A stretch of 21,875 nt of DNA from Candidatus Electronema aureum (GTDB lineage: Bacteria; Desulfobacterota; Desulfobulbia; Desulfobulbales; Desulfobulbaceae), in NCBI GenBank assembly GCA_004284765.1, contig NQJD01000040.1:1-21875 (forward strand), given 5' to 3'. The notes below the pieces were generated by a model. It made no database searches, was not told the origin of the DNA, and saw only the letters and a program-made list of their open reading frames with translations. This document shows positions 3,217-21,552 of the stretch, one piece after another (the first letter of the stretch is position 1; every line of letters starts with the position of its first letter). The position numbers were made by a program, and so were the translations under genes.

Positions 3217-3243
3217 GCCGGAACCCTTTATTTTGTCTATGAG

Positions 3244-3274: not shown

Positions 3275-3285
3275 AAGGAGCGATC

Positions 3286-5156: not shown

Positions 5157-5158
5157 AA

Positions 5159-5955: not shown

Positions 5956-6159
5956 GTGTTCTCCTGTTCTGATAGGTGGTTAGGGATTACTGCGCTCTCC
6001 CCCAGCCTGCGTTAGGCTGTTTGCTCTGTGTAACCGTTTTCCCAGCATAGTGCAAGCAATTGCCGTTGCTTCAAGGAGAAATAACCACGCCTGCGCCATC
6101 GTTCTTGCAAGCCGGGCGAGAATCCCCAGCCCGGCTGCCAGCCGCTTACGGATCAAGCT

Positions 6160-6348
6160 CTATTCAATATTCCCTTTCCGCTGCACTCGTGCTTCGCAGT
6201 CTGCATCAATGTCCCATGCTCCACCGGTGTTGCCACGAAGATCATTGTCCTCGAAGGTGCCGCCTCCTTTGTCCAATACCGAAATACCCCCATAACCGTT
6301 CTTGGAGATACGGTCAGGGCGCGGCAAGGATGCAGCCGGTAGATCACC
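6160..6348 (-). pseudogene. C-terminal remnant of a right-handed parallel beta-helix (CASH-type) repeat protein
   Basis: My own translation of a minus-strand frame without a start codon gives 'GDLPAASLPRPDRISKNGYGGISVLDKGGGTFEDNDLRGNTGGAWDIDADCEARVQRKGNIE*'. The 'GI.V...G...ED N.L.GN..G' periodicity is typical of beta-helix repeats. No N-terminal part is present. Confidence 0.35.
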
Positions 6349-6361
6349 TCAATATTGCTCA

Positions 6362-7405
6362 TCACCCCTTCTTGCTGTGCAGGTCAAACGCCACCTCGTA
6401 GGACTTACCTTTCGCCAGCGCGGTCGCGGGCGGAACATACTTGAACAGCAACGCCGAGAACTCATACTCAAAATCCCCGACAAACTGCGGATCGTCATTG
6501 TTGACCGTAACTGTCCTGCCATTGACGCTGTGACTCGGCTGCGCGGCCTCGTGCCAATACTTGCTGATCACTCTGTCTGGGTAAAACGTCAACTGCCCTG
6601 TTTTCTGTCCATTCTGAAACTTCAGCGTGTCCGTCCGCGTTCGCTTAACCGTGCCGACCAGCCGGTACTCGCCGACCTTATATTCAATCTTGTCAAACAC
6701 CTCTCCGTCCGGGGGCTGGGCGAGGAAGTAGAACGGCTTGTTTTCCGTTTGCGTCCAGCCGCTGGTTCCATTTGTTTCCTCGTCCGGCTCCTGCACCCAG
6801 CCGGATGAGGAAGCTGCACCCGCTGCACTCTGCGGGTCGTTCTCAGGCTGCTTGCCCGCTGACTGCGCAGCAGCGGCGCGGGCAGCGTCAGCCTCGCTTC
6901 GCTCCAACGCCGCCACAATCTGCTCCGCTATCTTTGTAATAGCCTTGCGAAGCTGTGGCGAGGTAAATGGCTCATGGCGCAACTCCCTCCAGTCCGCATA
7001 CTGCCGGGCGGCGATAATCTGCGCCAGCGGGTCATGTTTCAGCTTCTCTTTGTCCTTCAGCACAGGACAGGTGGCATAATAGACCGGCAGAATCAAATCG
7101 CCTCGGCCCAGCTCCTCTTCCCGCTTGAGAAAACGCTCAAGCTCCGCACGGCAGGCGGTGCTTTTGAAGAATGCAGGCGTGATGATTGGTAGCAGAAAGG
7201 TGACGGCAGCAAGCGAGGTGTCCAGCCGCTCCTGCCACTGCTGGCCCCAGGCAATGTCCTTGCGGTCTTGAAAGATGTCGAACGCCTCGCCAGTCAGGAA
7301 ACGTACCTCGCCGCTCAAGCGTTCGCGGAACTGCGTCAAGTCCCCATAGTCATGCTGGTCGTTTAAATTCACATAGCTCAGAAAAGCAAGTGGTGTCCGG
7401 CTCAT
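6362..7405 (-). CDS. TIR-domain protein with low-complexity linker and unassigned beta-rich C-terminal domain
   Basis: 347-aa ORF with GGAGGA RBS 7 nt upstream. The N-terminal ~140 aa read as a TIR_2-type domain: 'LAFLSY....D', 'IFQDRKDIAWGQQW', 'LLPIITPAFFKSTACRAELERF'. An Ala/Ser/Gln-rich linker follows, then ~150 aa with no motif I recognise. Confidence 0.8.
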   Translation of the reverse strand: MSRTPLAFLSYVNLNDQHDYGDLTQFRERLSGEVRFLTGEAFDIFQDRKDIAWGQQWQERLDTSLAAVTFLLPIITPAFFKSTACRAELERFLKREEELGRGDLILPVYYATCPVLKDKEKLKHDPLAQIIAARQYADWRELRHEPFTSPQLRKAITKIAEQIVAALERSEADAARAAAAQSAGKQPENDPQSAAGAASSSGWVQEPDEETNGTSGWTQTENKPFYFLAQPPDGEVFDKIEYKVGEYRLVGTVKRTRTDTLKFQNGQKTGQLTFYPDRVISKYWHEAAQPSHSVNGRTVTVNNDDPQFVGDFEYEFSALLFKYVPPATALAKGKSYEVAFDLHSKKG

Positions 7406-7454
7406 CTCAACTTCCTCCGCAGCGGTGTTGGTTGTTTAGTCCTGCATCAGCCGT

Positions 7455-7483
7455 ATAATAACTGTGTTTCTGCCGCGCTGCAA
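7455..7483 (-). promoter_or_regulatory. Putative sigma70 promoter for the TIR gene
   Basis: On the minus strand: TTGCAG (7483-7478), 17-nt spacer, TATTAT (7460-7455). The same AT block reads TATAAT (7454-7459) on the plus strand with TTGTTT 16 nt upstream, so it may be bidirectional. Confidence 0.45.
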
Positions 7484-7508
7484 GCGGTTCAGATTGCGCT
7501 GCTGTTGG

Positions 7509-7623
7509 TGACAGCATGGTGTCATGATATGTGATAGCAGGCTGTCACTCTGAGCAACACTACGCTGTCACTTCCTGTGACACTATGCCGTCACCCTGAG
7601 TGACACTACGCTGTCACTGCACA
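7509..7623. repeat. Five head-to-tail 23-bp repeats, each with a GTGACA-N6-TGTCAC-type dyad
   Basis: Units read directly from the sequence: GACAGCATGGTGTCATGATATGT / GATAGCAGGCTGTCACTCTGAGC / AACACTACGCTGTCACTTCCTGT / GACACTATGCCGTCACCCTGAGT / GACACTACGCTGTCACTGCACAC. The period is exactly 23 bp and the array lies between divergent promoters. Confidence 0.85.
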
Positions 7624-7651
7624 CGCCACCGTAGTGGCACGACATGTCGTG
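7624..7651. promoter_or_regulatory. Two adjacent palindromes downstream of the repeat array
   Basis: GCCAC-CGTA-GTGGC (7624-7637) overlaps a perfect 16-bp palindrome GCACGACATGTCGTGC (7636-7651) that contains the same GACA/TGTC core. Confidence 0.6.
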
Positions 7652-7678
7652 CTCCTGCTCAAAAGGTCTGATAATCCT

Positions 7679-7707
7679 GTTGACAAATCATCTGGCGCGT
7701 CTTAGTT
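7679..7707 (+). promoter_or_regulatory. Putative sigma70 promoter for the HU-like/DUF4469-like gene
   Basis: TTGACA (7679-7684), 17-nt spacer, TAGTTT (7702-7707), about 60 nt upstream of the ATG at 7768. Confidence 0.4.
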
Positions 7708-7767
7708 TTGTCTTGATGCGCCACGACCTTCCTGCATCTCTTCCTTTCCTCTCACCGGAGAACAGTC

Positions 7768-8841
7768 ATGAGCATACAATATCGGATTGAACCGAATCCA
7801 CTCACCACGCCCCCATCCTACCGCATTCAAGCCGTGCCGCGCAACACCGCAGGCTATGCGGAGATGGCCGCTGACATCTCGTCGGCGCAGCCCATCTACA
7901 GTCCTGAGACCATCAGCAGCCTTGCCCCGCTGATCATGAAATGGATTCAGCAGCGGCTCATCAGCGGCGACAAAGTGACCTTGGAGGAGGCGTTCAGCTA
8001 CTATATCTCCTTCACCGGCAAGTTGGACAGCCCGGACGAGCCACTGCCAGAAGATGACGATATACTTCAGGTTAATGTGCGCGTGTCCCAGCCTTTTGTG
8101 AAAGAGATACGGCATCAGGCCAAACTTGAGCGGCTGCCCATGACCGAGAAGCTGCCCGTGATCACATCGACCGAGGACACCAAGCTCAAGCTGGCTGACG
8201 TGCTGTTCGCAGGTGGCGTGCTCAAGTTGACTGGCAGCAATCTCCTCTTTGATGAGAGCAGCCCGGACTGCGGTTGCGTGCTGGAAGGGACACGGAGCGG
8301 GCGGCAGAAGCAGAGCACCTACGCCTCGGTCGCCAACAGCGGCATACTGCTGGTGCCAGACATTCCTGTGCAGGATAATCCCTGGAATAACGAATACACG
8401 GTCACGCTCACCACCCAGTACAGCGAACACGGCACTCTGCGTAGCGGCACCAGCCGCCGGAAGCTGCGCTCGCCCCTGACCGTGCCGCTCTTCGGCCACC
8501 CGCATCCGCCAGAGACAGGGATACTGACCGGCAATGCCACTGCCCCGTATGTGAAGATCACTGGCGGCACGGTCTCAGCAGACGAAATGCTGCGCATTCA
8601 GGCGGTGATTGATTCCCGCAGCGGCCTGCTGCTGCTCAATTTGCTCGACATGGAAGAGGGCGGCAAGACAGGCGCGACTGTGACAGTCACCGCCAATGGG
8701 ACATACACCTTGGGCGGATTTGCAGGCTCGGCAGTGACCAGCTTAGAGCTGAAGGTGGAGAATCTTGCGGCGTTAGTCAGCCTGATCAGGAATAGCTATG
8801 CAGGCAGGATGGTGGATATTCTGGATATAAGTATGGCGTAA
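7768..8841 (+). CDS. HU-like (HU-HIG type) DNA-binding domain + DUF4469-like Ig-fold domain protein with ~110-aa unassigned C-terminal extension
   Basis: 357-aa ORF with GGAGA RBS. The N-terminus 'YRIEPNPLTTPPSYRIQAVPRNTAGYAEMAADIS....ETISSLAPLIMKWIQQRLISGDKVTLEEAFSYYISFTGKL' is followed by 'LPVITSTEDT...GGVLKLTGSNLLFDESSPDCGCVLE....ILLVPDIP....YTVTLTTQYS'. This matches my recollection of the Bacteroidota HU + DUF4469 architecture. I have not verified it by search. Confidence 0.6.
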   Translation: MSIQYRIEPNPLTTPPSYRIQAVPRNTAGYAEMAADISSAQPIYSPETISSLAPLIMKWIQQRLISGDKVTLEEAFSYYISFTGKLDSPDEPLPEDDDILQVNVRVSQPFVKEIRHQAKLERLPMTEKLPVITSTEDTKLKLADVLFAGGVLKLTGSNLLFDESSPDCGCVLEGTRSGRQKQSTYASVANSGILLVPDIPVQDNPWNNEYTVTLTTQYSEHGTLRSGTSRRKLRSPLTVPLFGHPHPPETGILTGNATAPYVKITGGTVSADEMLRIQAVIDSRSGLLLLNLLDMEEGGKTGATVTVTANGTYTLGGFAGSAVTSLELKVENLAALVSLIRNSYAGRMVDILDISMA

Positions 8842-8846
8842 GACAG

Positions 8847-8872
8847 GAGGCAGCTCTTGGGCGAGCTGCCTC
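8847..8872. terminator. Hairpin between convergent genes (possible bidirectional terminator)
   Basis: GAGGCAGCTC (8847-8856) / GAGCTGCCTC (8863-8872) with a 6-nt loop. There is no clear T-tract on either side. Confidence 0.4.
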
Positions 8873-8889
8873 AGTGGTAGAATCAGCAC

Positions 8890-9546
8890 TCAGGCTGCAT
8901 GGGCATGTTGCCAACGCGAGGCTTTCTCTTTCTTGATCTTGATGATTCTGGACCAGCCATAGTTGACTGATTTTACCTCAACGCTGGCATACCCCATTCT
9001 GTTGATGTATTGAATATACTTGTCGAGAGGGAAATAGACCCGGAAGCCGAGCTTTCTTTCCACTCGTTGCAGGAAGTCGTAATCAGCAAATTTTCGTAGT
9101 GTCTTCTTTTGACTGAAATGGTTAACGATGATCACCTCGCCACCTTCTTTGCAAACGCTAAAGGCTTTTTCCAGCAGGACTTCTGGGTTCGGCGTGACCG
9201 AAAGCACGTACATGATGATCACTTTGTCGAACTGATTCTGTTGGAATGCCATCTCCTCTGCATTTTCTATCTTGAGCTGCACGTTGGTCAAAGAGTATCT
9301 GTTGACCCGTTCCTTGGCCTTCTCCAGCATCTCTTTCGACAGATCAATACCGACGATATCCACTGTGCGTGGATATTTAATCAGACTGATTCCGGTTCCC
9401 ACTCCCACTTCCAGCACTTTCTCGTTACCATTGAGGGAAATCATTTTCAGTGCTTCGTTACGCCCATTCTCGAAAACAAGACCGAATATCTTGTCGTAAA
9501 CAGCAGAATACTGATTATAGACTTTCTCTACGCCATGTTTGTTCAT
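8890..9546 (-). CDS. Class I SAM-dependent methyltransferase (UbiE/PmtA-like)
   Basis: 218-aa ORF with SAM motif I 'VLEVGVGTGISL', then 'VGIDLSKEML' and 'FDKVIIMYVL'. The N-terminal 'YDKIFGLVFENGR' resembles phospholipid N-methyltransferase-type enzymes, which is a recollection only. The gene is visibly lower in GC than its neighbours. Confidence 0.8.
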   Translation of the reverse strand: MNKHGVEKVYNQYSAVYDKIFGLVFENGRNEALKMISLNGNEKVLEVGVGTGISLIKYPRTVDIVGIDLSKEMLEKAKERVNRYSLTNVQLKIENAEEMAFQQNQFDKVIIMYVLSVTPNPEVLLEKAFSVCKEGGEVIIVNHFSQKKTLRKFADYDFLQRVERKLGFRVYFPLDKYIQYINRMGYASVEVKSVNYGWSRIIKIKKEKASRWQHAHAA

Positions 9547-9651
9547 AATAGATTATTGCGTTGGACGGGTATCTTGTGCCGCCCTTCTGATGTGTTGACG
9601 GTATATAGGTCTATTCTGTTGCGTGCCGCAGAAAACAAACCATGCCTTCCT

Positions 9652-10551
9652 TCAATTTGAACATACTGTGCGCTGCCGCAACAGCACCATCTCACCTTCG
9701 CCTTTGAGTATTCCCGGAGCTAACTGCTGCCGCTCGGTGACGTGCTTGGCCACTTCAGCGCACTTGACCGTGAAGAGAAAAAAGATCGGGGCAGATACCT
9801 CAGACAGGGTTTCAAAATTACCCATGCCCTTGCTGATGATGATGTCTGCCGCCTGGAAATGCGCCTGAAACTCTTCGCTGCACTGTGCCAACGGTGTGCC
9901 AGGGCAGGCGGTGCCGTTACTGATCACCAGACAAAGCCTGTCCAACCCACAGAGGCGGGCATCCTCTAACGTGGCATCGTTGATGATGGGAAAGCCGCGC
10001 ACCGCTGCTGTGACCTGGCAGCCAAGCCGCTGAAGTTGCTCAATCAGCAGGGCATCAAAGACGATCTCGCCGCAGTTATCGCAGAGATAGAGAATCTTGC
10101 GCCCGGCCTTGCTGATTGCCTCCTGCAAGGCCGGATAATCGTCGATTGCAAATTCCCGCTGAAAGCAGTCCTGCATGGTCTGGGCCGCATCAAACGTATG
10201 CTGGGCAGCGTAATCAATAATATTGCCGCCAATTGCTGCTTGTACTGCCGCCCGCAGCGGATCGTCCGCCGCCGCAATCTGTGCTCTGATTGCATCGCGC
10301 AAGGACAAGGCCAGCTCGTTGCTTTCCCGCTTGACGCGAGCAAAGGGATCGCGGCTACCCAACACACGAGCAAACGTCTCGTAAAGCGCAATGGCGTTTT
10401 CCGGCGGGGAAAGATTGGTATCTGCCGCTGCGATGAACCGGCCAGCCTCGTTGCAAAGACACCGCTGCGTGGCCACATCAGCCCCAGCCAGCAGTCCGGT
10501 TGAACGAGCCTGTTTCATGAAGCAAACTAAGCAGTCAAGGGTGGTCTGCAT
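9652..10551 (-). CDS. DUF89 family protein (damage-control phosphatase, ARMT1-like)
   Basis: 299-aa ORF with N-terminal 'LDCLVCFMKQA' (family CxxC start), 'ILYLCDNCGEIVFD' and 'IISKGMGNFE' motifs characteristic of DUF89. Confidence 0.8.
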   Translation of the reverse strand: MQTTLDCLVCFMKQARSTGLLAGADVATQRCLCNEAGRFIAAADTNLSPPENAIALYETFARVLGSRDPFARVKRESNELALSLRDAIRAQIAAADDPLRAAVQAAIGGNIIDYAAQHTFDAAQTMQDCFQREFAIDDYPALQEAISKAGRKILYLCDNCGEIVFDALLIEQLQRLGCQVTAAVRGFPIINDATLEDARLCGLDRLCLVISNGTACPGTPLAQCSEEFQAHFQAADIIISKGMGNFETLSEVSAPIFFLFTVKCAEVAKHVTERQQLAPGILKGEGEMVLLRQRTVCSN

Positions 10552-11306
10552 GATCTTTTCGTCTCTTGGAGGAGCAAATATTCAGCCCGAACATTGCCCA
10601 GCGCGGCAAATATCTGCTCACGGCTGCCGGGAAGCTGCGCGTAAATATGCTGCAACAAGTCTCTGATATCTTTCCGCCGGGTCTGCTCGGCTAACGGACA
10701 CGTTGCAGGCACCGGCTCCAATCCCAACCGTTTGCCGATGGCGCGGATTTCCTCTTTCTCTAAATACGCTAAAGGTCGGATCAGGGCGATTCTGCCGGAG
10801 AACAGCTCTTGCTTGGGCCGCATAGTGCTGATATTGCCGCCAGACGTGAGGTTGATGAAAAAGGTCTCAACGATGTCGTCGCGGTGATGGCCAAAAGCTA
10901 ACTTGCCGCAGTCGCTCTGCCGGGCCTGCTCAAAGAGCTGCCGTCGTCGGTTGCGGGCGCAACGATGGCACAATCCTGCTGGGTCTGCGCCTTCCTCCAG
11001 CACTACTGGCTGCTCCGCAGGCAGAATTTGACAGGCAATGCCAAGTGCTGCTAACTGCGCTGCTGTCTGCTCTGCCCTGTTGCTATGTCGTCCGTTGTCA
11101 TCAGGCTGCATGTCAATATGCACCACCTCTACTTCGTAAGCAATCGGAGCTTTTCTCTGCCAATAATGCAACAGCCACGCCAGCACCAGTGAATCAATCC
11201 CGCCGGAAACCGCTGCCAGCACTCGATCGCCGTCAGCCAGCATCCCGTAATCCAGCATCGCTTGGGCCACGCGCCGGTTCTCTCCGACAGAAAGAATGCG
11301 TTTCAC
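10527..11306 (-). CDS. ttcA: tRNA 2-thiocytidine biosynthesis protein TtcA family (PP-loop ATPase)
   Basis: PP-loop 'SGGIDS', 'CHRCARNRR' Cys pair, 'GHHRDDIVETFF' and 'IRPLAY' are present. The ORF track extends to 11486, but that extension overlaps the upstream lipoprotein gene. I place the start at GTG 11306 (VKRILSVGENRRVAQAMLDYGM, which aligns with the TtcA N-terminus). The start is uncertain; alternatives are GTG 11270 and ATG 11258. Confidence 0.8.
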   Translation of the reverse strand: MKRILSVGENRRVAQAMLDYGMLADGDRVLAAVSGGIDSLVLAWLLHYWQRKAPIAYEVEVVHIDMQPDDNGRHSNRAEQTAAQLAALGIACQILPAEQPVVLEEGADPAGLCHRCARNRRRQLFEQARQSDCGKLAFGHHRDDIVETFFINLTSGGNISTMRPKQELFSGRIALIRPLAYLEKEEIRAIGKRLGLEPVPATCPLAEQTRRKDIRDLLQHIYAQLPGSREQIFAALGNVRAEYLLLQETKRSCRPPLTA

Positions 11307-11320
11307 GTCATGCGCAAAGA

Positions 11321-11956
11321 TTATTGCTTCCCAACAAGAAAGGAACAGTCGTTTAACTGTTCGCGTAAATTCTGCGAGAGGAGCTGTTCCGCCTTTACCC
11401 AAGTAAAGGAGTTTTCCGCACTGAGGCGAAACTTGAGTAAGTTGCTCATGAGCGGCTCTTGCTCTTCGTCCACTCTGCCACGACACAAAACCGTGCCTTC
11501 TGGCAGAGCCAACAGTCGGTACGAGAACGACACGGATGAAGGCTCTTTGGCCGTATATTCGCCACCAATCCGCTCTTTGTAGCGGTGCAGCGTGGTTTCC
11601 AGAATCGCATTGCAGCCTGCTTTTTCCGCTGCTGCCTTGGCTCCGGCCAACGATGTCCTTGGTTTGCCCGCTTCCTCAGCTTGTTCATCGCTGATCATGC
11701 GAATGTCTGTCCTGCTGCCAAAATAATCCCGCAGAGCTTGGTTCAGAGCTGTTGTGCCCTCATGCAGCGTTTTTTCTTCTCCCTCTGTCGACTTCCGGTC
11801 CAGATCAGTACCTTGGACTGCGGGCAGCACTGCCGCACAGCTCAGAGTAAAATCAGGCAACTGTGGTTCAGGCTGGGCTGTTGTTCCACCGCAGCCGCCG
11901 GACATTGCCGTCAGCCCCAGCAGTCCTGCCGTGATGATACGTCTCGTTGCGTTCAC
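11321..11956 (-). CDS. Probable lipoprotein of unknown function
   Basis: AGGAGGAG RBS, then GTG at 11956. The signal peptide 'VNATRRIITAGLLGLTAMSGGC' has a lipobox-like Cys. The longer tracked ORF (to 12289) runs through tRNA-Gly and is rejected. Confidence 0.65.
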   Translation of the reverse strand: MNATRRIITAGLLGLTAMSGGCGGTTAQPEPQLPDFTLSCAAVLPAVQGTDLDRKSTEGEEKTLHEGTTALNQALRDYFGSRTDIRMISDEQAEEAGKPRTSLAGAKAAAEKAGCNAILETTLHRYKERIGGEYTAKEPSSVSFSYRLLALPEGTVLCRGRVDEEQEPLMSNLLKFRLSAENSFTWVKAEQLLSQNLREQLNDCSFLVGKQ

Positions 11957-12005
11957 GCCGCTCCTCCTGAAGTGTAAGTCTCTCTCCTGCCGCCTTTGCC
12001 GAGCA

Positions 12006-12034
12006 ATAATATTCCGATGGCCTGCGCTTGGCAA
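12006..12034 (-). promoter_or_regulatory. Putative sigma70 promoter for the lipoprotein-ttcA-DUF89 cluster
   Basis: On the minus strand: TTGCCA (12034-12029), 17-nt spacer, TATTAT (12011-12006). Confidence 0.55.
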
Positions 12035-12100
12035 GAATTGCTTGACCAGCCTGCGTTTTTTCTTGTGCGAGAAGAAAAAAGCAGTCCTGCATTTTTTCTG

Positions 12101-12130
12101 TTGACAGCAGGGGTGTGGTTTTGATATAGT
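12101..12130 (+). promoter_or_regulatory. Putative sigma70 promoter for tRNA-Gly
   Basis: TTGACA (12101-12106), 18-nt spacer, TATAGT (12125-12130). It ends 18 nt upstream of the tRNA 5' end. Confidence 0.5.
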
Positions 12131-12147
12131 TCCACCGTTTCGTAAGA

Positions 12148-12222
<75 letters not shown>

Positions 12223-12236
12223 TATTTGAACAACGC

Positions 12237-12268
12237 AAGGTTCGGACGCTGTTCGAACCTTTTTTTAT
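12237..12268 (+). terminator. Rho-independent terminator after tRNA-Gly
   Basis: AAGGTTCG (12237-12244) / CGAACCTT (12254-12261) followed by a T-run (TTTTTTTATT). Confidence 0.6.
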
Positions 12269-12287
12269 TACACATTGAGGCGCGTAC

Positions 12288-12719
12288 ATGAAAACGTATT
12301 ATACGCCGGTGGACGAGATAGACCGCAAATGGTTTGTTGTTGACGCGGACGGCAAAGTTCTCGGTCGGATTGCCACGGAAATTGCTGATCGGCTGCGCGG
12401 CAAGCACAAGCCAACCTTCTGCAATTTCCAGGACAACGGCGACTTCATTATTGTTGTCAACGCAGAGCGGGTGCATCTGACCGGCAAAAAATGGGACGAC
12501 AAGACTTACTGGCGGCATACCGGCTGGCCAGGTGGTATTAAAAGTCGGACGGCCAAGGAAGTTAGGACTAAGTCCCCGGAAGAGCTAATCATGATGGCGG
12601 TCAAAGGCATGTTGCCCCATAACAAGATGGGCGCGGCGCAGCTGACGAAGCTCAAGGTTTATGCTGGAGCCGAACATCCCCACCAGGCACAGCAGCCTGA
12701 ACTTCTGGATATAAAATAA
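12288..12719 (+). CDS. rplM: 50S ribosomal protein L13
   Basis: 143-aa ORF with 'RKWFVVDADGKVLGRIATEIADRLRGKHKP' and 'GDFIIVVNAE', canonical L13 sequence. Confidence 0.97.
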   Translation: MKTYYTPVDEIDRKWFVVDADGKVLGRIATEIADRLRGKHKPTFCNFQDNGDFIIVVNAERVHLTGKKWDDKTYWRHTGWPGGIKSRTAKEVRTKSPEELIMMAVKGMLPHNKMGAAQLTKLKVYAGAEHPHQAQQPELLDIK

Positions 12720-12728
12720 CGGATCATC

Positions 12729-13121
12729 ATGGCAAACGAGCAGATATACGCCACCGGCAAACGGAAGAGCGCGATCGCCAGAGTCTGGATCACGCGCGGT
12801 ACAGGCAGTGTGGCTGTCAACAAAATGACTCCGCAGGATTATTTCGGTAATATTTTCTTTGAGCCGAAAGTAGCCCAGCCTTTTGCAGTTACGGAGACAG
12901 CAGAGCAGTACGATGTCAAAGCCACTGTTCAAGGCGGCGGCAAAACAGCTCAGGTAGATGCGTTGGTACATGGTATCTCTAAGGCTCTTCAGACCATGAA
13001 TCCTGAACTGCGCGACGCGCTGAAGAAGGCAGGTCTCTTGACCCGTGATTCTCGAGTCAAAGAGCGGAAGAAGTACGGCCAGCGCGGTGCTCGCGCTCGC
13101 TTCCAGTTCTCCAAGCGTTAA
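12729..13121 (+). CDS. rpsI: 30S ribosomal protein S9
   Basis: 130-aa ORF with '[15 protein letters not shown]', 'GGGKTAQ' and the C-terminal '[25 protein letters not shown]', canonical S9 sequence. Confidence 0.97.
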
Positions 13122-13224: not shown

Positions 13225-14265
13225 ATGCTGAACGTTGGCATCATCGGGGCCTCCGGCTACACCGGCGTTGAACTGGCCCGCATTCTCTCGATCCATCCTG
13301 AAGTCAAGCTGACCGTGGCCACTTCACGTCAGTATGCGGGCAAACCGCTTTCCGCCGTCTTTCCTAACTTGCGCAAGCGGGTGGATTTGCTCTGCGAGGA
13401 CTTGACCCCGGAGCAGCTTGTTGACCGCGCCGATTTCTTTTTCGCCGCTGTGCCGCATAAGACTGCCATGGCCCTTGTGCCGACGCTTCTGGCGGCTGGC
13501 AAGAAGGTCGTTGATCTGAGTGCGGATTTCCGCATCCGCGATGCCGCAGTGTACGAGCAGTGGTATCAGCCGCACACATGCCCGGAGCTGATCGCTGAGG
13601 CTGTCTACGGTCTGCCGGAGCTGTACCGCGAGCAGGTGAAGCAGGCCCGGCTGGTCGCCAATCCTGGCTGCTATCCCACCTCAATCATTCTTGGCCTCGC
13701 TCCGCTGCTGCGCGAAAAGCTGATCGACCCATCCACGTTGATCATTGACTCCAAATCCGGCACCTCCGGCGCAGGACGCTCGGCCAGCGTGGACACTCTT
13801 TATTGTGAGGTGGCCGACGGCTTCCGGGCCTACAAGGTCGGCGGCACGCACCGCCACATCCCGGAGATTGAGCAGGAGCTGTCCGTGCTGGCCGGAAGCG
13901 CAGTGACGATCTCCTTCACCCCGCATTTGCTGCCGATTTCACGCGGCATTCTCAGCACCATCTACGCCACATTGAGCAGCGCAGTCAGCGAGCAGGACAT
14001 TCAGGCGTTGTACGAAAGCGCGTACAAGGACGAGAGCTTTGTCCGCGTCTGCCCTGCCGGAACCTTCCCGGCCACCCAGCATGTGCGCGGCAGCAACTGC
14101 TGTGACATCGGCGTGAAGGTTGATGCCAGAACCGGGCGGGTTATTGTCATGTCGGCGATTGACAACATCGCCAAAGGCGCGTCCGGTCAAGCAGTGCAGA
14201 ATATGAACCTCATGAACGGCTTTGCCGAAGACTGCGCCATCCGAGGAGCCGCTTTCTTCCCGTGA
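13225..14265 (+). CDS. argC: N-acetyl-gamma-glutamyl-phosphate reductase
   Basis: AAGGAG RBS (13213-13218), then ATG at 13225. Motifs '[17 protein letters not shown]', 'NPGCYPTS' (catalytic Cys) and '[16 protein letters not shown]' are present. The tracked upstream extension to 13045 overlaps rpsI and is rejected. Confidence 0.95.
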
Positions 14266-14266
14266 G
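14256..14266. repeat. Core copy 1 of an 11-bp direct repeat CTTCCC[G/A]TGA[G/C]
   Basis: CTTCCCGTGAG spans the argC stop codon. Identical-class copies lie at 15889-15899 and 18025-18035. Confidence 0.75.
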
Positions 14267-14280
14267 GCGGAGGAAGATAC

Positions 14281-14316
14281 GCCTGCGCCTAACCTTTGAT
14301 CCGGGTTGGCGCAGGC
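14281..14316. other. Imperfect 13-bp-stem hairpin at the left edge of the islet
   Basis: GCCTGCGCC(T)AACC (14281-14294) pairs with GGTTGGCGCAGGC (14304-14316), with one bulged T and a 9-nt loop. No T-tract follows. Confidence 0.5.
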
Positions 14317-14320
14317 CGAT

Positions 14321-15100
14321 ATGTCTAACTATTTATCATTAAATGCAATTATGGTTTGCCGTTTATGCCAACAAGACTTGGAACTGAGGAATTCGCATAT
14401 AATTCCTGAGTTGTTATGGAGCAGCATATACAATAAAAAGCACCAAGCTCTTCCTATGTCTATAGGAAACAACAAATTAAAGATAATTCAAAAAGGTATT
14501 CGAGAAAAATTACTCTGTCAAGGATGCGAGACTAAACTTTCAAGATGGGAAAATTCTCTAAAAAGGCATCTCGTAGATTTAGGAGATCTTGCCAGTGATT
14601 TTTTAGAGATAGATCGTATGAATGCTGATCTGATAAGGGTGAAAAATATTGAATACAGGATATTTAAACTGGCGATACTGTCCATATTTTGGAGAATGTC
14701 TGTCTCAACTAATCATGTTTATTCAGATTATCAGTTGGGACCTTACGAAGAGATAATAAGAGATATTTTGTTTACCGAAGCGCATGTACCAGAAAAACAT
14801 TTTCCTGTATTAATTTATAGATACGAATTAGATGGTATGTTTTATCCAGATATTATGATGCATTTTCCTTGTCGTAAATTAGATCAAACCTATACTATTC
14901 AACAGGTTATATTTTATGGACATCTCTTCTGTATCATTATTAATAACAAAAAACTTCCTGTTGATATACAGAAAGAGATTATTCTCAGCGAAACAGGAGA
15001 GATATTCATCAGTGTGAGAAGTTTGGTTGAGCTTGCATCTCCTGTCAGTGTTTTCACAAGACTCCTTGATGATGATGTAAAACGATTTTATGGGAAATAG
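14321..15100 (+). CDS. AT-rich orphan protein with N-terminal CxxC...SHIIPE...CxxC (HNH-like / zinc-ribbon-like) motif
   Basis: The ORF runs 14306-15100. I take the first ATG at 14321, with ATG 14351 (MVCRLCQQ...) also possible. The motif string is 'CRLCQQDLELRNSHIIPELLW....LLCQGCETKLSRWE', and the remaining ~180 aa are unassigned. Hand counts of single lines give roughly 28-38% G+C versus about 55% in argC. Confidence 0.6.
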   Translation: MSNYLSLNAIMVCRLCQQDLELRNSHIIPELLWSSIYNKKHQALPMSIGNNKLKIIQKGIREKLLCQGCETKLSRWENSLKRHLVDLGDLASDFLEIDRMNADLIRVKNIEYRIFKLAILSIFWRMSVSTNHVYSDYQLGPYEEIIRDILFTEAHVPEKHFPVLIYRYELDGMFYPDIMMHFPCRKLDQTYTIQQVIFYGHLFCIIINNKKLPVDIQKEIILSETGEIFISVRSLVELASPVSVFTRLLDDDVKRFYGK

Positions 15101-15175
15101 CGATGGCACTAGACGATATTGAGCTATCACGGCAGGATGGCGGATATTTTTGAGATGGGGATGTGGCACTGCTGA

Positions 15176-15229: not shown

Positions 15230-15487
15230 ATGCTGGCAGGAACGAAAAAACGGCTGGTCATTGAACTCGACCCGCAAGAGCACGGAGCTATCAAAGCGCA
15301 AGCCCTGCGGCTCGGCATTTCTATGAAAGAGTATGTCTTGCGGCAGCTGCGCGACAGGCGGGAGAACCCAGTCTCGGATGATCTGACCGCTGCTCTTGCC
15401 GCTGCCCTTAACGAAGTGAAAGCGCACAAAGAGGGCAAGATGAACGCGCCGCCGGAAAGCGCGCGCGCTTTTTTCAGCAGACTTTGA
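15230..15487 (+). CDS. Ribbon-helix-helix (CopG/Arc-like) antitoxin
   Basis: AAGGAGG RBS (15217-15223), then ATG at 15230. 'KKRLVIELDPQEHGAIKAQALRLGISMKEYVLRQL' fits a beta-strand/helix/helix RHH pattern. The stop overlaps the toxin ATG as TGATG. Confidence 0.7.
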   Translation: MLAGTKKRLVIELDPQEHGAIKAQALRLGISMKEYVLRQLRDRRENPVSDDLTAALAAALNEVKAHKEGKMNAPPESARAFFSRL

Positions 15488-15819
15488 TGCGCGTTGTCAA
15501 CACCACCTTGAGCTTCCGCAAGGTTTTCCGCAAGTTCCTGAAGCCGTATCCGCATTTGCAAGAAGATTTCCTTCCGCTGCTGGAGCAGCTTGAACACGGC
15601 CCGCTGCCCGGCGTTCCTCTCGTTGGTTTTGCTGGAAAAATCTGGAAGGCCCGCCTTGCCTCGTCAGATCAGCGCAAAGGCAGAAGCGGCGGCTTCAGGC
15701 TGATCTATCTTACTGACGAGAAGGCGCAGGAGCTTTGGCTGCTGACGCTGTATGCAAAATCAGAGCAGACCGACATCCGCGCTGGCGAGATTCAGAAAAT
15801 TCTTGATTCGCTACCCTGA
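15487..15819 (+). CDS. RelE/ParE-superfamily toxin (HigB/RelE-like)
   Basis: 110-aa ORF. 'GKIWKARLASSDQRKGRSGGFRLIYL....LWLLTLYAKSEQTDI' matches the K(G/R)KSGG(Y/F)R(V/L)IY...YaKnE pattern of RelE-like addiction toxins. It is translationally coupled to the RHH gene. Confidence 0.75.
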   Translation: MRVVNTTLSFRKVFRKFLKPYPHLQEDFLPLLEQLEHGPLPGVPLVGFAGKIWKARLASSDQRKGRSGGFRLIYLTDEKAQELWLLTLYAKSEQTDIRAGEIQKILDSLP

Positions 15820-15888: not shown

Positions 15889-15969
15889 CTTCCCATGACC
15901 CAACGCAACATCCGCCTGCACGTCGCCTACGACGGCACAGACTTCTGCGGCTGCGGGCATACTCATTGA
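15889..15969 (+). pseudogene. Diverged 5' fragment of truA (includes core copy 2)
   Basis: 15889-15953 aligns by hand to 18025-18089 with 58/65 identities. It would encode MTQRNIRLHVAYDGTDFCG, compared with truA MSQRNIRLHIAYDGTGFCG. Homology then ends and a stop follows at 15967-15969. Confidence 0.8.
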
Positions 15970-17271: not shown

Positions 17272-17498
17272 TCGATTGATAGGCTCTCGCCTCTACTTAT
17301 TCCCTTCCACTCTGCCGGGCTGAGAAAGGCAAGGTCGGAGCTGACCAACACGCTGCTCCATCCTTATAGCTGACGCAATAGTTCCGGTTTCTGACGCATC
17401 AGGCCCTTATATAAGCAATCGGCATAGTGTATTCTATCTCTTAGATCATGGGATGATATTGGTTCGTCCCGCCAACTGACCTTTCAAAGGAGTTTATC

Positions 17499-17627
17499 AT
17501 GACTAAGAAGATCGTTCTGTTTGCATCGCTTTGCTTGTTTGCTCTTAATTTAAGCGCAGCATTAGCGGAACCTACTGGAAGTGACACATGCCCAAGTGGA
17601 TGCCATGTAGGAGGAAGCGGTAAATAA
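17499..17627 (+). CDS. Small secreted Cys-containing peptide (42 aa), hypothetical
   Basis: This ORF is too short for the ORF track. An AAAGGAG RBS sits 7 nt upstream. The product is MTKKIVLFASLCLFALNLSAALA|EPTGSDTCPSGCHVGGSGK, with a clear signal-peptide pattern and an A-L-A cleavage motif. A strong terminator follows. Confidence 0.45.
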   Translation: MTKKIVLFASLCLFALNLSAALAEPTGSDTCPSGCHVGGSGK

Positions 17628-17848: not shown

Positions 17849-17869
17849 TCCTCCCCGCCACCTTTCCTC

Positions 17870-17898
17870 TTGACAGGCCGGGCCGCGCTCCGTATGCT
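17870..17898 (+). promoter_or_regulatory. Putative sigma70 promoter upstream of truA
   Basis: TTGACA (17870-17875), 17-nt spacer, TATGCT (17893-17898). Confidence 0.5.
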
Positions 17899-17968
17899 TG
17901 CCTTTTTAGTAAGGTAGAACCCCAATCCAGAGATTTCTCTCATTGATTCTGTCCGCATCAGAATAAAA

Positions 17969-18034
17969 AACATGAACGTGCTGAACGTCTTTGCCGAGGA
18001 CTGCGCCATCCGAGGAGCCGCCTTCTTCCCATGA
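17969..18034 (+). pseudogene. Diverged duplicate of the argC 3' end (includes core copy 3)
   Basis: 17990-18035 matches 14221-14266 at 43/46 by hand, with weaker homology back to about 17969. It encodes [21 protein letters not shown], compared with arg[22 protein letters not shown]. Its TGA overlaps the truA ATG as ATGA. Confidence 0.8.
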
Positions 18035-18852
18035 GCCAGCGCAACATTCGCCTGCACATCGCCTACGACGGCACTGGTTTCTGCGGCTGGCAGAAGCAGA
18101 AGAACGGGACGACCATTCAGGGGCTGCTGGAGGCCGCGCTTGCCCGCATCACCAAGGAGGCGACGGAGGTCAGCGGCGCGGGCCGCACGGATGCGGGCGT
18201 TCATGCAGAGGGAATGACCGCCAATTTCTATACGGGCGCGGCCATGCCAGCGGCAGCCTTTCAGCGGGCACTGAATTCCATGCTGCCCAAGGCGGTGCGC
18301 ATTCTTGAGGCCGCCGAGGCCGCGCCCGACTTCCACGCCCGCTTTTCCGCGCTCGGCAAAACCTACCGCTACGACTTCTTCACCGGCGCAGTGCAGCTGC
18401 CCGCCGAACGCCTTTACCGCGCCCACGCGCCCTGCGTCTTCATGCCGGAGCGCGTCCAGCCTTGTCTGGAACTGCTCATCGGCAGCCACGACTTCTCCAG
18501 CTTTGAGGCCGTTGGCACCCGCGACCGCAGCAAGACCGGGGGCCGGGGCGCAGTGCGCACCATCTTCCGCGCCGAATGCGTCGCCGATCCAGCCCGGCCT
18601 GAGCATTTTTCCTTCCGCTTCAGCGGCGACGGCTTTCTTCGCTGCATGGTGCGCAATCTGTCTGGAACCCTGATCTGGGCTGGCGCAGGCAAAGTAAGCT
18701 GCGAGCAGTTCGCCAGTATTCTTGCGGCAAAAGACCGCACACAGGCAGGCCCGACTGCCCAAGCTTGCGGGTTGTTCTTAGAGAAAGTGGATTACCGGGA
18801 CTGTTTTTTTAGCAAAGGACTGGTCTCCGGGAACAGCTTGGGGTGTGCTTGA
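18031..18852 (+). CDS. truA: tRNA pseudouridine(38-40) synthase TruA
   Basis: 273-aa ORF with 'IRLHIAYDGTGFCGWQKQ' and 'GAGRTDAGVHA' (catalytic Asp), plus the later 'FLRCMVRNL' motif. Confidence 0.93.
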   Translation: MSQRNIRLHIAYDGTGFCGWQKQKNGTTIQGLLEAALARITKEATEVSGAGRTDAGVHAEGMTANFYTGAAMPAAAFQRALNSMLPKAVRILEAAEAAPDFHARFSALGKTYRYDFFTGAVQLPAERLYRAHAPCVFMPERVQPCLELLIGSHDFSSFEAVGTRDRSKTGGRGAVRTIFRAECVADPARPEHFSFRFSGDGFLRCMVRNLSGTLIWAGAGKVSCEQFASILAAKDRTQAGPTAQACGLFLEKVDYRDCFFSKGLVSGNSLGCA

Positions 18853-19200: not shown

Positions 19201-21552
19201 TCAACCCTGATTTCGAGCTGCCTTATCGCAGACCCGGCAGACTTCGTTCTGCTCCCAGACCGGGCCGCTGGCAGTGTCATGCACGGTCACGCCCCGGCGG
19301 AGCAGCTCAGAGCGGGCCTCATCAGCAGCGGCCCAGTCCTTGCGGCGGCGGGCTTCCTCACGCTGCTGAATCAGGCGGTTGATCTCTGGGGCTAAGGCGC
19401 ATTCGTCCAAGCGGAGGAAGCCCAGCACCAGATTCATCCGGCGCAGGCAGGCAAAAACTTCATTCTTCTGCGCCAAATCGAGCGAACCGGCAATCAGGGC
19501 CGGGTTGGCTTTCTTGATGAACTCGAACAGCGCGCCGATGGCCCCGGAAATATTGAGGTCATCATTCATTGCGGCGGTGAACTGCTCCTCCAGCTCGGCG
19601 GTGAGCTGGCTGATCAAGCGGTGCGGCAGGCCCGGCGGCAGGCAGAGCAGCTTGCGGGTGAATTCATCAATCCGTTTTAGGGCGTTGCGGAAGGCATCGA
19701 GCTTGCGGTAGCTGAACTCGATGGACTTGCGGTAATGCACGCCCACGAGCATGAAACGAATCTCGCGCCCGGTGTAGCCTTTGTCCAGCACCTCTTGCAG
19801 CGTGACCACGTTGCCGGATTCCTGCGCCATCTTCTTGCCGTTGTGCAGCAGCAGGCCGGAATGCAGCCAATACTGCGCCAGCGGCTTGCCGGTCAGCGAC
19901 TCGGCAATGGCGATCTCGTTCTCGTGATGCGGGAAAAGCAGCTCTTGGCCGCCGGTGTGAATGTCAATGGTCTCGCCGAGATGCCGGGTGGACATGGCCG
20001 TACATTCGATATGCCAGCCGGGCCGCACATTGCCCCAGTCGGTGGCGAAAAAGATGCCTTTCTTCAGCTCGCCAAGTGTGGAACGCTTGAGCAGGGTGAA
20101 ATCACGGGGATTGTCCTTGTCGTAGTTGTCGAGATCAACCGTGCAGCCGGTCTGTATCTTGCTCAGGTCAATCCCGGACAGCCGCCTATATCGCTTGAAC
20201 TTCGAGATGTCGAAATAGATCGAGCCGTGCTTCTCGTAGGCATAGCCCTTGTGAATCAGCTTGTGGGCGATGTCAATCATCTCGGCCACCTGCTCTGAGG
20301 CACGCGGATAGCCGGAGAAGTCGTTGATGCCGAGGATGCCCATGGCCTCGCGGAAAAGGGAAATATGGCGTTCGGTGAAGGCGGCCAGCGGCTGCCCGGC
20401 TTTCTCCGCGCCAGCAATGGTTTTGTCGTCCAGATCAGTGAAATTCATCAACGACTGCACCTCGAAGCCGCTGAAGCGGAGATGGCGGATCATCAAGTCC
20501 GCTGCTGCCATGCGGCGGCAGTGCGCCAAGTTCGGCGGCTCGCAGGCAGTGGGGCCGCAGGCGTAGAAGGTCACGCTCTTCGCATCCGCCGGTTTGAAGA
20601 TCTCCTTCTTGCGGCTCATTGAGTTGTGATAGCGGATTTTCCCCTCCAGGCTTTCCTCCTTCTCCTTGCGGACAAAGAGCGTCGTGCTCAGGTAGCGTTC
20701 GCCGCCGTCCGGGAATATCGCCACCACGTAACTGTCTTTCACCTTGGCCGCCTGCTCCATCGCTGCAAACATCGCCGCGCCAGAACTCATGCCGACCAGA
20801 AGACCTTCGCGCTGGGCCAGCAGCCGGGCGGTGCGGAAGGCATCCTCATCCGCCACGTTGACAATCTGATGCGGCAGCGTCTTGTCAAAGATCTCTGGGC
20901 GGTAGGACTCCTTCATGTTCTTGAGGCCCTGAATCTTGTGCCCGTAGTACGGCTCCACCGCGACCACCCGCACGTCCGGGTGATGCTCGCGGAACCAGCG
21001 CGACAGCCCCATCGCCGTGCCCGACGTGCCCAGCGTGGTGACGATGTGTGTCACCTTGCCCTCGCTCTGCCGCCAGATTTCCGGGGCCGTGCTCTTGCAG
21101 TGCGCCTGCCAGTTGGCCGGGTTGTTGAACTGGTCGGTGAGGAAGTACAGCTCCGGCTGCGCCAGGGCGAGGGAGTAGGCTTTCTCAATCGCGCCGTCGG
21201 TGCTGCGGCGGGCCGGAGTGAGGATAAGTTCCGCGCCGTAGGCCCGCATGATCTGCCGCCGCTCCATGCTCGCTGACTCCGGCATGACGAGGCAGCAGCG
21301 GTAGCCCTTGGCCGCGCAGACCATCGCCAAGCCGATGCCGGTGTTGCCGCTGGTGGCTTCGAGCACGATCTTGTCCGGGGTCAGCAGGCCGCTTTCCTCT
21401 CCGGTCTCGATCATGTTCAGCGCGGGCCGGTCTTTCACCGAGCCGCCGGGGTTCATGGCTTCGAGCTTGGCGAAGATCGCGCCGCCTTCAGGCGATGCCA
21501 GCCGCCGCAGCGGGACTATGGGCGTGTTGCCGATCAGGGAGAGGAGGTTCAT
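19201..21552 (-). CDS. Fusion protein: PLP-dependent cysteine synthase (CysK/CysM-like) + full-length cysteinyl-tRNA synthetase-like module with non-canonical HIGH/KMSKS motifs
   Basis: Continuous 783-aa ORF. The N-terminal ~300 aa carry 'IGNTPIVPL', 'NPGGSVKDR' (PLP Lys), 'TSGNTGIGLA' and 'GHKIQG'. The C-terminal ~470 aa align by eye to E. coli CysRS, with 'FYACGPT', 'RPGWHIECTAM', 'IHTGGQELLFPHHENEIA', 'DDLNISGA' and the C-terminal 'LIQQREEARRRKDWAAADEAR'. HIGH reads NLAH and KMSKS reads KMAQE. Confidence 0.85.
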   Translation of the reverse strand: MNLLSLIGNTPIVPLRRLASPEGGAIFAKLEAMNPGGSVKDRPALNMIETGEESGLLTPDKIVLEATSGNTGIGLAMVCAAKGYRCCLVMPESASMERRQIMRAYGAELILTPARRSTDGAIEKAYSLALAQPELYFLTDQFNNPANWQAHCKSTAPEIWRQSEGKVTHIVTTLGTSGTAMGLSRWFREHHPDVRVVAVEPYYGHKIQGLKNMKESYRPEIFDKTLPHQIVNVADEDAFRTARLLAQREGLLVGMSSGAAMFAAMEQAAKVKDSYVVAIFPDGGERYLSTTLFVRKEKEESLEGKIRYHNSMSRKKEIFKPADAKSVTFYACGPTACEPPNLAHCRRMAAADLMIRHLRFSGFEVQSLMNFTDLDDKTIAGAEKAGQPLAAFTERHISLFREAMGILGINDFSGYPRASEQVAEMIDIAHKLIHKGYAYEKHGSIYFDISKFKRYRRLSGIDLSKIQTGCTVDLDNYDKDNPRDFTLLKRSTLGELKKGIFFATDWGNVRPGWHIECTAMSTRHLGETIDIHTGGQELLFPHHENEIAIAESLTGKPLAQYWLHSGLLLHNGKKMAQESGNVVTLQEVLDKGYTGREIRFMLVGVHYRKSIEFSYRKLDAFRNALKRIDEFTRKLLCLPPGLPHRLISQLTAELEEQFTAAMNDDLNISGAIGALFEFIKKANPALIAGSLDLAQKNEVFACLRRMNLVLGFLRLDECALAPEINRLIQQREEARRRKDWAAADEARSELLRRGVTVHDTASGPVWEQNEVCRVCDKAARNQG

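Follow-up and report, generated by a model that had tools for sequence, protein, structure and literature searches.

A very large unnamed family of predicted zinc proteins that moves between bacterial genomes as a single gene, and its possible nuclease site

Introduction

The window analysed here, the whole 21,875-nucleotide (nt) stretch of contig NQJD01000040.1 of Candidatus Electronema aureum, carries between argC and truA a strongly AT-rich gene outside every named family, and raises the question of what this gene encodes and how it came to lie there. The initial annotation described it as an orphan with an HNH-like cysteine motif, the first cargo of a recombination hotspot and a possible single-gene anti-phage or abortive-infection effector. 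The gene is a member of a very large unnamed family that is mobile between bacterial genomes as a single gene. Our favoured reading, to which we give a probability of roughly 40%, is that the family consists of stand-alone zinc-protein conflict nucleases that are mobile as single genes; zinc binding, nuclease chemistry and a role in defence are what we infer for it.

Coding sequence and family

An unbroken open reading frame (ORF) occupies 14321-15100 of the + strand and encodes 259 amino acids (aa) counted from ATG 14321, from which residues are numbered throughout; a TTG stands at 14306. The native start is assigned to ATG 14351, because homologues begin with the pattern M-[VIK]-C-x-L-C in their alignment and because the DNA homology between the window and its relatives begins at 14333-14346, that is, 5' of this ATG. 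By the same comparison, the codons from 14321 to 14350 would be derived from the junction, and the reading frame divides into two features, the second of which is also marked by a low predicted local distance difference test (pLDDT) score.

14351..15100, + strand: conserved coding sequence (CDS) of the unnamed zinc-protein family, a functional gene (249 aa plus stop; homologues begin at the equivalent Met)
14321..14350, + strand: in-frame 10-codon extension from the upstream ATG, probably outside the native protein (unconserved in homologues; pLDDT <50 for residues 1-5)

Apart from the start, which moves to ATG 14351, the earlier description of an AT-rich ORF far from the host composition was borne out: the CDS has a G+C content of 0.336 against 0.552 for the remainder of the window. 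Per 400-nt segment, the gene reaches 0.31-0.36, the minimum of the whole window (the second-lowest value is 0.443), and argC lies at 0.59-0.62. The ratio of nonsynonymous to synonymous substitution rates (dN/dS) is 0.21-0.24, at dS 0.2-0.67, in comparisons of the window gene with three relatives of 76-89% protein identity, and the gene is therefore a functional coding sequence under purifying selection; conservation as a coding sequence, on which the initial annotation had made its proposal depend, is thus observed (dN/dS about 0.22).

An initial homologue search gave 69 proteins, ~250 aa long and every one annotated 'hypothetical', from Candidatus Electronema sp. JC (77%) and cyanobacterial metagenome-assembled genomes (MAGs) among others. 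A profile search over 1.84 billion representatives of clusters at 50% identity matched 8,213 clusters when the cutoff was E<=1e-3 and 1,821 when it was E<=1e-30, almost without exception 230-260 aa long, and the supposed orphan therefore has a family of at least 8,213 clusters. Carriers among the reference genomes belong to Desulfobacterota, Cyanobacteria, Verrucomicrobiota, Planctomycetota, Latescibacterota, Acidobacteriota and Chloroflexota, and further include Pseudomonas, Shewanella, Hydrogenovibrio, Nitrosomonas and Methylocystis. Judged by these matches, the more than 8,000 clusters appear to span more than 15 phyla and to make up a previously unrecognised family. The literature searched for the family held no description of it, and scans of the target protein against Pfam and NCBIfam gave zero matches at threshold, with no housekeeping family found. 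Likewise, a homologue search using the N-terminal sub-alignment returned unannotated fragments of the same family only and zero bridges to a named one.

Mobility as a single gene

No conserved neighbour was found among 620 proteins encoded within four genes of the target in ~85 loci, the maximum recurrence being 3 loci. Of 82 loci, 77 have a homologue with a G+C content under that of its flanks (mean difference -9.6 points), and in 45 the homologue has the lowest value of all genes present. DNA similarity between the window and the three closest relatives is limited to 14333-15162, 14346-15104 and 14343-15150. Moreover, in cross-organism pairs, compared with 3 kb of flank on each side, identity ends ~10-200 nt from the CDS: Hydrogenovibrio and a gammaproteobacterial MAG share 92.6% identity from -8 to +9, two Latescibacterota 92.4% from -15 to +9, three cyanobacteria 85-89% from about -122 to +90, and Pseudomonas and Nitrosomonas 79.5% over the CDS alone. 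Further close homologue pairs sit in unrelated flanks. These alignments indicate that the target gene travels alone, as a unit essentially the size of its CDS, to which, in the window and its close relatives, a short remnant of another gene is attached.

15101..15162, + strand: 3'-end remnant of a DUF4469-family gene, which travels with the target gene (shared downstream of the stop by the loci L113, L114 and L001)

The remnant comes just behind the stop in all four close relatives, and its sequence matches positions 8794-8828, at the end of the DUF4469 gene that the window itself carries. Two loci, L114 and the Electronema locus (L001), have a DUF4469 gene immediately 5' of the target, which stands between ~40-nt direct repeats of that gene's end. 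Restriction genes of types I-IV have been found inserted with a long target duplication and no other mobile elements (PMC2853133), and the repeats flanking the gene in L114 and L001 are, by analogy, the same long-target-duplication pattern. No recombinase accompanies the target gene. The window copy retains the downstream repeat only and, of the AT-rich region native to its 5' side, just 18 nt, which indicates that it was secondarily relocated: a unit of ~830 nt (14333-15162) would have landed in the argC|truA junction without its native promoter, and the gene is now probably reliant on read-through transcription from argC.

Two other modes of transfer were considered and rejected. Integron attC sites measure ~57-141 nt and follow a promoterless ORF; the shared DNA of close pairs ends 9-130 nt past the stop (+9 in two 92% pairs), so near the CDS that there is no space for an attC, and the gene is not an integron cassette. 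Site-specific homing was set aside because the insertion site is not the same among relatives, the window copy lying at argC|truA and the 76-89% relatives after a DUF4469 gene or elsewhere.

In the window itself, the DUF4469 (Ig-like) gene occupies 7768-8841 (+) and is directly followed by a class I methyltransferase gene of lower G+C content (0.44-0.47) at 8890-9546 (-). The 3' flank of the DUF4469 family, which hosts the target in L001 and L114, may be a second insertion hotspot.

Protein architecture and candidate active site

The AlphaFold2 model, built from a 44-sequence alignment, is a single unit with a pLDDT of 89.4 and a predicted template modelling score (pTM) of 0.87. Its predicted elements are strand 22-26, helix 30-36, strand 61-66, the long helix 67-89, hairpin 96-108 and helices 112-128 and 142-152, followed by a sheet plus short helices. 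Conservation, tallied over 212 family members (202-212 at individual positions), peaks at residues 11-80 and 111-130 and is lowest over the final ~100 residues, which are the most variable. Four stretches of the gene encode the conserved residues.

14357..14368, + strand: first C-x2-C (C13, C16), the proposed first half of a zinc knuckle (C13 in 200/202, C16 in 201/203)
14393..14410, + strand: S25-H26-I-I-P-E30, with H26 as candidate general base (S25 and H26 each in 208/208, E30 in 205/208)
14489..14551, + strand: Q57-K58-G59-x-R61-E62-x-L-L-C66-x2-C69-E70…E77, spanning strand two, the other half of the knuckle and the first turns of helix 67-89
14654..14695, + strand: second conserved block, Y112-x3-K116-x4-S121-x2-W124-R125, in helix 112-128, the lowest-entropy block

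The motifs follow one another as C13-R-L-C16, 8 residues, S25-H26-I-I-P-E30, 35 residues and C66-Q-G-C69-E70; the pattern had been recognised before, with a first spacer of 9 residues that is corrected here to 8. G59, C69 and E77 are each present in 212/212 members and C66 in 210/212. The earlier remark that no His follows the second CxxC was right; position 70 holds Glu in 206 members and Asp in the other 6. E30, Y37, Q57, K58, E62, Y112, S121, W124 and R125 are at least 94% conserved. The C-terminal part, in which nothing had been assignable, is far from featureless: Y112 (205/212), S121 (210/212), W124 (201/212) and R125 (209/212) are nearly invariant, as is K116. The N-terminal 82 residues modelled alone reach a pLDDT of only 71, less confident than the full protein, for which reason the zinc module appears, in the models, to be packed against the rest of the protein and not to be an independent domain.

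The arrangement of these residues recalls the His-Me finger nucleases. Their core is a β-hairpin followed by an α-helix, in which a near-invariant catalytic His ends the first strand and an Asn or His in the first helix turn binds the metal; two frequent but optional features are an Asp, Glu or His next before the catalytic one and, on the helix, a polar residue at +4 or +8. Many members, such as endonuclease VII (EndoVII), Cas9 and CAD, have a treble-clef zinc knuckle, built from a CxxC that precedes the finger and a second CxxC where the helix begins, and the loop between the strands ranges from short to very elaborate; inactive derivatives are also known, for example Smad MH1 and the ENPP nuclease-like domain (PMC5714182).

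In the target family, the invariant H26 (208/208) is the final residue, at the C-terminal end, of the predicted strand 22-26, the place of the catalytic His. C13/C16 and C66/C69, conserved at 99% or more, are placed as in a treble clef and form a putative Zn site. C66-x2-C69 bridges the predicted strand 61-66 and helix 67-89, and an acidic residue directly follows C69; the predicted strand 22-26, strand 61-66 and helix 67-89 stand in His-Me order, with a 35-residue loop between the strands.

T4 EndoVII offers the closest comparison by layout: its zinc ligands are C23, C26, C58 and C61, its catalytic pair is D40-H41, and N62 comes right after the last Cys. The EndoVII sequence used for the comparison is identical at 157/157 positions to deposited endonuclease VII genes. 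EndoVII and HNH_5 present the same order of elements as the target, namely C-x2-C, a strand ended by His, a loop, a strand, C-x2-C at the helix start and a residue at the metal-ligand position, so that C23/C26…D40-H41…C58-x2-C61-N62…E65 of EndoVII can be set against C13/C16…S25-H26…C66-x2-C69-E70…E77 of the target. The EndoVII segment 'RGLLCNLCN' resembles the target's 'REKLLCQGCE', and both proteins have a second acidic residue further along the helix. In an hhalign comparison with a ten-sequence EndoVII profile, both CxxC pairs and the motif R-x-x-L-L-C-x-x-C-[N/E] are in register (P 9e-4), and HNH_5 is the commonest weak Pfam match of the family (5/44 members, sub-threshold, best E 0.006). 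The target differs from EndoVII and HNH_5 in having Ser for the Asp/Glu/His before the catalytic His and Glu/Asp for the Asn/His on the helix, in an inter-strand loop of 35 residues that, in the model, holds its own helix, and in a module built into a globule of ~250 residues with the extra block Y-x3-K-x4-S-x2-W-R. On the helix, the invariant E77 falls at +7 and not at +4 or +8.

Several results weigh against a nuclease of this kind. Asn or His is found directly after the second CxxC in 0/212 members, the position being Glu or Asp, which as acidic residues could still coordinate a metal, and the residue before H26 is Ser in 208/208, never Asp, Glu or His. The hhalign probability against EndoVII is just 22-24%, and the DHDH of EndoVII is aligned to the family's Y-D-x-K-H41 rather than to S-H26; against a canonical HNH profile (PF01844/PF13395/PF14279), the probability is 2.6% and the alignment is out of register. 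A Foldseek search of the PDB with the full model gave template modelling (TM) scores <0.2 and zero nuclease folds, and with the N-terminal module (residues 11-92) the top match was a non-catalytic ZAD zinc domain (E 2.4, TM 0.44). Searches of PDB sequences, with the single sequence and the profile alike, were empty, the Pfam, NCBIfam and PADLOC scans gave nothing significant against any nuclease, and the target protein had no match at E<=1 among the 5,027 models of PADLOC-DB v2.0.0, in line with the initial annotation, which could place it in no named defence family. Moreover, the weak Pfam matches to HNH_5, zf-AD and DUF4428 may reflect the shared C4 zinc pattern alone.

The protein is not filed as a His-Me member, because membership is undemonstrated and one defining residue type is absent. 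Of the HNH-like core proposed earlier, what stands is a zinc-knuckle His-Me layout with a non-canonical last residue; membership of the HNH family is not supported. With superfamily membership left unassigned, the odds are slightly better than even that the protein works like a zinc-knuckle His-Me nuclease, and its modelled layout probably corresponds to a zinc-knuckle His-Me finger in which the active site takes a new form.

These results also bear on a different reading, in which the protein is a C4 treble-clef zinc protein other than a nuclease, such as a Ser/His/Glu hydrolase, a nucleotide- or NAD-modifying enzyme, or a DNA/RNA-binding regulator. Every nuclease similarity test fell below significance, Ser and Glu replace the canonical His-Me metal ligands, the N-terminal module is not confidently folded alone, and the existence of inactive His-Me derivatives (PMC5714182) provides a precedent. 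The ZAD domain, the top fold match of the module and, through zf-AD, a recurrent weak Pfam match (3/44 members), is a treble-clef C4 zinc fold with a long helix behind it; it is, however, a eukaryotic dimerisation domain without catalytic residues, whereas the target family is prokaryotic and carries an invariant His and invariant acidic residues. Moreover, ~15 invariant polar or charged residues, including the His and four acidic ones, exceed the needs of a structural zinc finger, the invariant His occupies the place of the catalytic His in the fold, and the pattern of mobility is like that of restriction genes, all of which makes a non-nuclease quite unlikely. Were it nonetheless correct, a large family that shares ~15 invariant polar residues and lacks any known relative by fold would still be a worthwhile target for structural and functional work.

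Under the favoured reading of a conflict nuclease, C13, C16, C66 and C69 would form a structural treble-clef zinc knuckle that positions the active site, with H26 ending strand one, E70 in the first helix turn and E77 two turns on. The site would be completed by E30, E62, K58, R61 and Y37 and by Y112/K116/S121/R125 from the later helix. H26 and E70/E77 would thereby make up a one-metal phosphodiesterase centre, a His-Me layout with Ser and Glu substitutions and a 35-residue loop, and the variable C-terminal ~100 residues could set the specificity for a substrate or a trigger. The protein would cut nucleic acids, as a solitary type IV-restriction-like nuclease or an abortive-infection nuclease carried as accessory cargo by bacteria, prophages and transposons.

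The HNH family used for comparison was drawn from a TIGR02646-type HNH endonuclease at 1884-2576 (-) of L094, an Acinetobacter prophage-like contig, where it lies beside a 429-aa gene and ~4 kb from a target homologue.

Genomic contexts and biological role

The contexts were read from eleven homologue loci with Pfam labels on every gene, plus the window as a twelfth. One homologue (L111) lies within a type 1 bacteriophage exclusion (BREX) operon, 21 nt after pglX and beside two AAA_15-type pairs; another belongs to an island that also encodes SIR2-HerA, TIR, nSTAND and a caspase-like protease; a third (L110, 1-15113) is carried as cargo by a Tn7-like element (Mu-transposase C-terminal domain, TniB, TniQ); and one adjoins an integrase and a DUF433/DUF5615 toxin-antitoxin pair. 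The window is itself rich in toxin-antitoxin genes, with three such pairs around the target. Beyond these loci, ten viral contigs carry relatives, of which five were scanned (L091, L093, L095, L096 and L097). Here the gene occupies prophage moron slots, including the gap between a HicB-like antitoxin and the baseplate, the gap between a lipase moron and a transposase, a position near the lysis module and one beside the terminase, and its G+C content is 16-25 points under that of the prophage in L091, L093, L095 and L096 and ~3 points under in L097.

The neighbourhoods of the target gene were surveyed for known defence genes with PADLOC at E<=1e-8, and compared as family totals and lists, not as exact counts of matched proteins: 49 and 56 families were matched in two proximal sets of 118 proteins, against 30 in 118 genes lying 6-10 kb off. 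The proximal families include TIR effectors, BrxA, SoFic, MADS, MkoA, TmtA and PDC candidates.

The contexts also hold points that tell against a defence role. The near-gene PADLOC excess, measured against the distal control only, is modest. In 5 of the 11 Pfam-labelled homologue contexts (5 of 12 with the window), the gene stands alone among housekeeping genes, without defence or mobile genes, and the 236 proteins encoded within two genes of the target in reference genomes carry mostly housekeeping Pfams, with no family in more than 2 proteins. The gene is moreover rare in sequenced phages (2/50,697 records) and plasmids (5/72,556), under the label 'hypothetical protein' only. The defence context suggested in the initial annotation is only partly borne out, a minority of homologues being found in clear defence islands, transposon cargo or prophage morons and the immediate neighbours being mostly housekeeping genes.

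The L111 locus spans 1-12973 and comprises brxA, brxB, brxC and pglX with three inserts: the first, placed between brxC and pglX, pairs an AAA_15 gene with one of 173 aa; the second is the target-family gene; and the third pairs an AAA_15/AAA_21 gene with one of 216 aa. In L110, the element is flanked by Wadjet (MksF, JetD) and a mer operon, and the homologue comes directly after a small Xre/ParS-like protein.

The presence of relatives in viral contigs raises the reading of a phage gene with a role of its own in the phage life cycle, the bacterial copies of which would be prophage remnants. PHROGs matches to phrog_19960, 7075 and 26326 (E 1e-19 to 6e-11), all three of them families of unknown function, and a structural homologue in BFVD from a Myoviridae contig (E 6e-12, TM 0.69) are in keeping with it. 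The reading is nevertheless very unlikely, given that sequenced phages yielded only a weak match in the 2 records mentioned above, that the viral copies take accessory moron positions outside the conserved phage modules at a G+C content lower than that of the prophage, and that the 10 kb around most bacterial copies are free of phage genes.

The main rival shares the chemistry of the favoured reading: a purely selfish mobile nuclease, homing-endonuclease-like or restriction-gene-like, would cut the DNA of the recipient and be copied in during repair, with no benefit to the host. It would account for a mobile unit that is essentially the CDS, for the ~40-nt target duplications in L114 and L001 with no recombinase nearby, for the hotspot with its duplicated junction fragments and junction palindrome, for the frequent solo insertion between housekeeping genes (rpoC, ribosomal-protein operons, the glutaminyl-tRNA synthetase gene, argC|truA), and for the only slight enrichment of known defence genes nearby. 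Conversely, close homologues occupy unrelated sites with no conserved homing target gene, several lie within defence islands, the BREX operon and prophage moron slots, and purifying selection is clear, though homing enzymes can show the same; the nuclease activity is, moreover, itself only putative. A purely selfish element is thus unlikely, and it overlaps with the favoured reading, because restriction genes are both selfish and defensive.

The favoured reading of a conflict nuclease draws on two classes of known systems. As in solitary (type IV-like) restriction enzymes, the target is a stand-alone putative nuclease without a methyltransferase partner, AT-rich relative to the host and patchy in distribution, and, as with mobile restriction genes, it shows ~40-nt target duplications without a recombinase and is sometimes found inside BREX or other defence islands. 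It differs from restriction enzymes in matching 0 PADLOC restriction models and in showing, by Foldseek, no modified-base-binding domain (SRA, EVE or similar). With single-gene abortive-infection or defence effectors, it shares a single gene of ~250 aa, a low G+C content, variable surroundings, prophage accessory slots and Tn7-like cargo; it differs from the known ones in matching 0 of the 5,027 PADLOC models and in an only partial association with known defence genes.

If the protein is a nuclease and does protect against phages or plasmids, it would be a compact single-gene system missed by Pfam, NCBIfam and PADLOC, present in thousands of environmental lineages, including relatives of cable bacteria, cyanobacteria, Verrucomicrobiota and Pseudomonas, and its rigid S-H/C-x2-C-E/E signature would extend one-metal His-Me nuclease chemistry. 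CDS-sized mobility with ~40-nt duplications would be a concrete case of nuclease-gene movement without a recombinase, a question raised for restriction-modification genes. A more far-reaching proposal, which we put forward tentatively and hold to be doubtful, joins these elements: a new His-Me active-site version (S-H…C-x2-C-E…E) would define stand-alone immune or selfish nucleases in a fold without a solved relative, which would spread as a bare CDS through long target duplications that the enzyme itself may catalyse.

The argC|truA hotspot and its cargo

In the layout taken as ancestral, the argC stop overlaps the truA start. The window holds three partial copies of this junction, together with a palindrome and a toxin-antitoxin (TA) pair next to the target gene.

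14200..14295, + strand: junction copy 1, 3' end of the functional argC followed by ~30 nt of degenerate truA 5' sequence (D1 repeat, 81% identical to 17969-18064)
15889..15953, + strand: junction copy 2, last ~10 nt of argC plus a 62-nt truA 5' pseudo-fragment (D2 repeat, 89% identical to 18025-18089)
17969..18089, + strand: junction copy 3, intact truA with its ATG (18031) overlapped by the stop of a ~62-nt argC 3' remnant (by alignment)
14281..14316, no strand: imperfect 14-nt palindrome at the left junction, just 5' of the gene (I3 repeat, 86% complementary, 8-nt spacer)
15230..15819, + strand: ParD-like/RelE-like TA pair, a separate cargo unit and not the target's partner (host-like G+C content of 0.55-0.57)

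Copy 1 marks the left boundary of cargo module 1 and copy 2 the division between modules 1 and 2, and the intact truA after copy 3 is identified by its PF01416 match (E 1.2e-36). Module 1 consists of the target unit (34% G+C) and the compositionally separate ParD/RelE pair (56%), and module 2 of a BrnT/BrnA-like pair, VapB/VapC and ~0.7 kb of unassigned sequence; no integrase lies between the junction copies. Because three partial junction copies, 81-89% identical, bracket two modules without an integrase, the arrangement indicates, as read from the repeats, that insertions with long duplications took place serially at a single intergenic hotspot, and the place given to the gene by the initial annotation, as first cargo of a recombination hotspot beside a RelE-like TA pair, holds.

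The arms of the palindrome are GCCTGCGCCTAACC and GGGTTGGCGCAGGC, one of them being the degenerate truA 5' remnant. No T-run accompanies it, so it is not a typical terminator, and it looks like a scar of repair or insertion; its AAC/GTT boxes are innermost, not outermost as in attC, in a comparison made without an attC covariance model.

The ParD-like antitoxin matches PF09386 (E 9.7e-9) and the RelE-like toxin PF06296 (E 3.4e-5, short of the Pfam cutoff); the BrnT/BrnA-like and then the VapB/VapC pairs follow downstream, all on the same strand as the target. The position of the target immediately upstream of the ParD/RelE-like pair, on the same strand, would suit a third gene or toxin of that TA locus. 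This reading is effectively refuted by the lack of a conserved partner in ~85 homologue loci, where recurrence reaches 3 loci at most, and the host-like G+C content of the pair and the end of the transferred unit at 15162, before the TA promoter region, add to its extreme improbability.

Further upstream, a TIR-domain protein of 347 aa is encoded at 6362-7405 (-) (TIR_2, E 1.6e-11), ~7 kb from the target, and a PIN-domain toxin at 5312-5710 (-), ~9 kb from it, bringing the window to four toxin-like genes and a TIR gene in ~12 kb.

Two non-coding elements of the region recur in the Electronema locus. The first, a 40-60-nt element common to 17849-17909 and that locus, was considered as a recombination site and rejected, being a TTGACA-N17-TATGCT promoter: at 17870-17898, just before the argC remnant and truA, this near-consensus promoter is accompanied by the conserved upstream sequence CCTTTCCTC, and similar promoters precede unrelated genes at 8589-8628 and 10751-10810 of L001. 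The second, at 17368-17518, comprises a non-coding leader of ~130 nt and the start of a signal-peptide-like ORF (17499-17627, 42 aa). It is 92.7% identical to 7125-7275 of L001, far above its surroundings, where it lies upstream of an unannotated 131-aa gene of Candidatus Electronema sp. JC; it has no Rfam match and may be a conserved cis-regulatory element.

Lastly, beyond truA, the - strand carries at 19201-21552 an ORF of 783 aa that fuses a cysteine-synthase-type pyridoxal-phosphate-dependent (PALP) domain to a complete cysteinyl-tRNA synthetase (tRNA-synt_1e, DALR_2, CysS_C).

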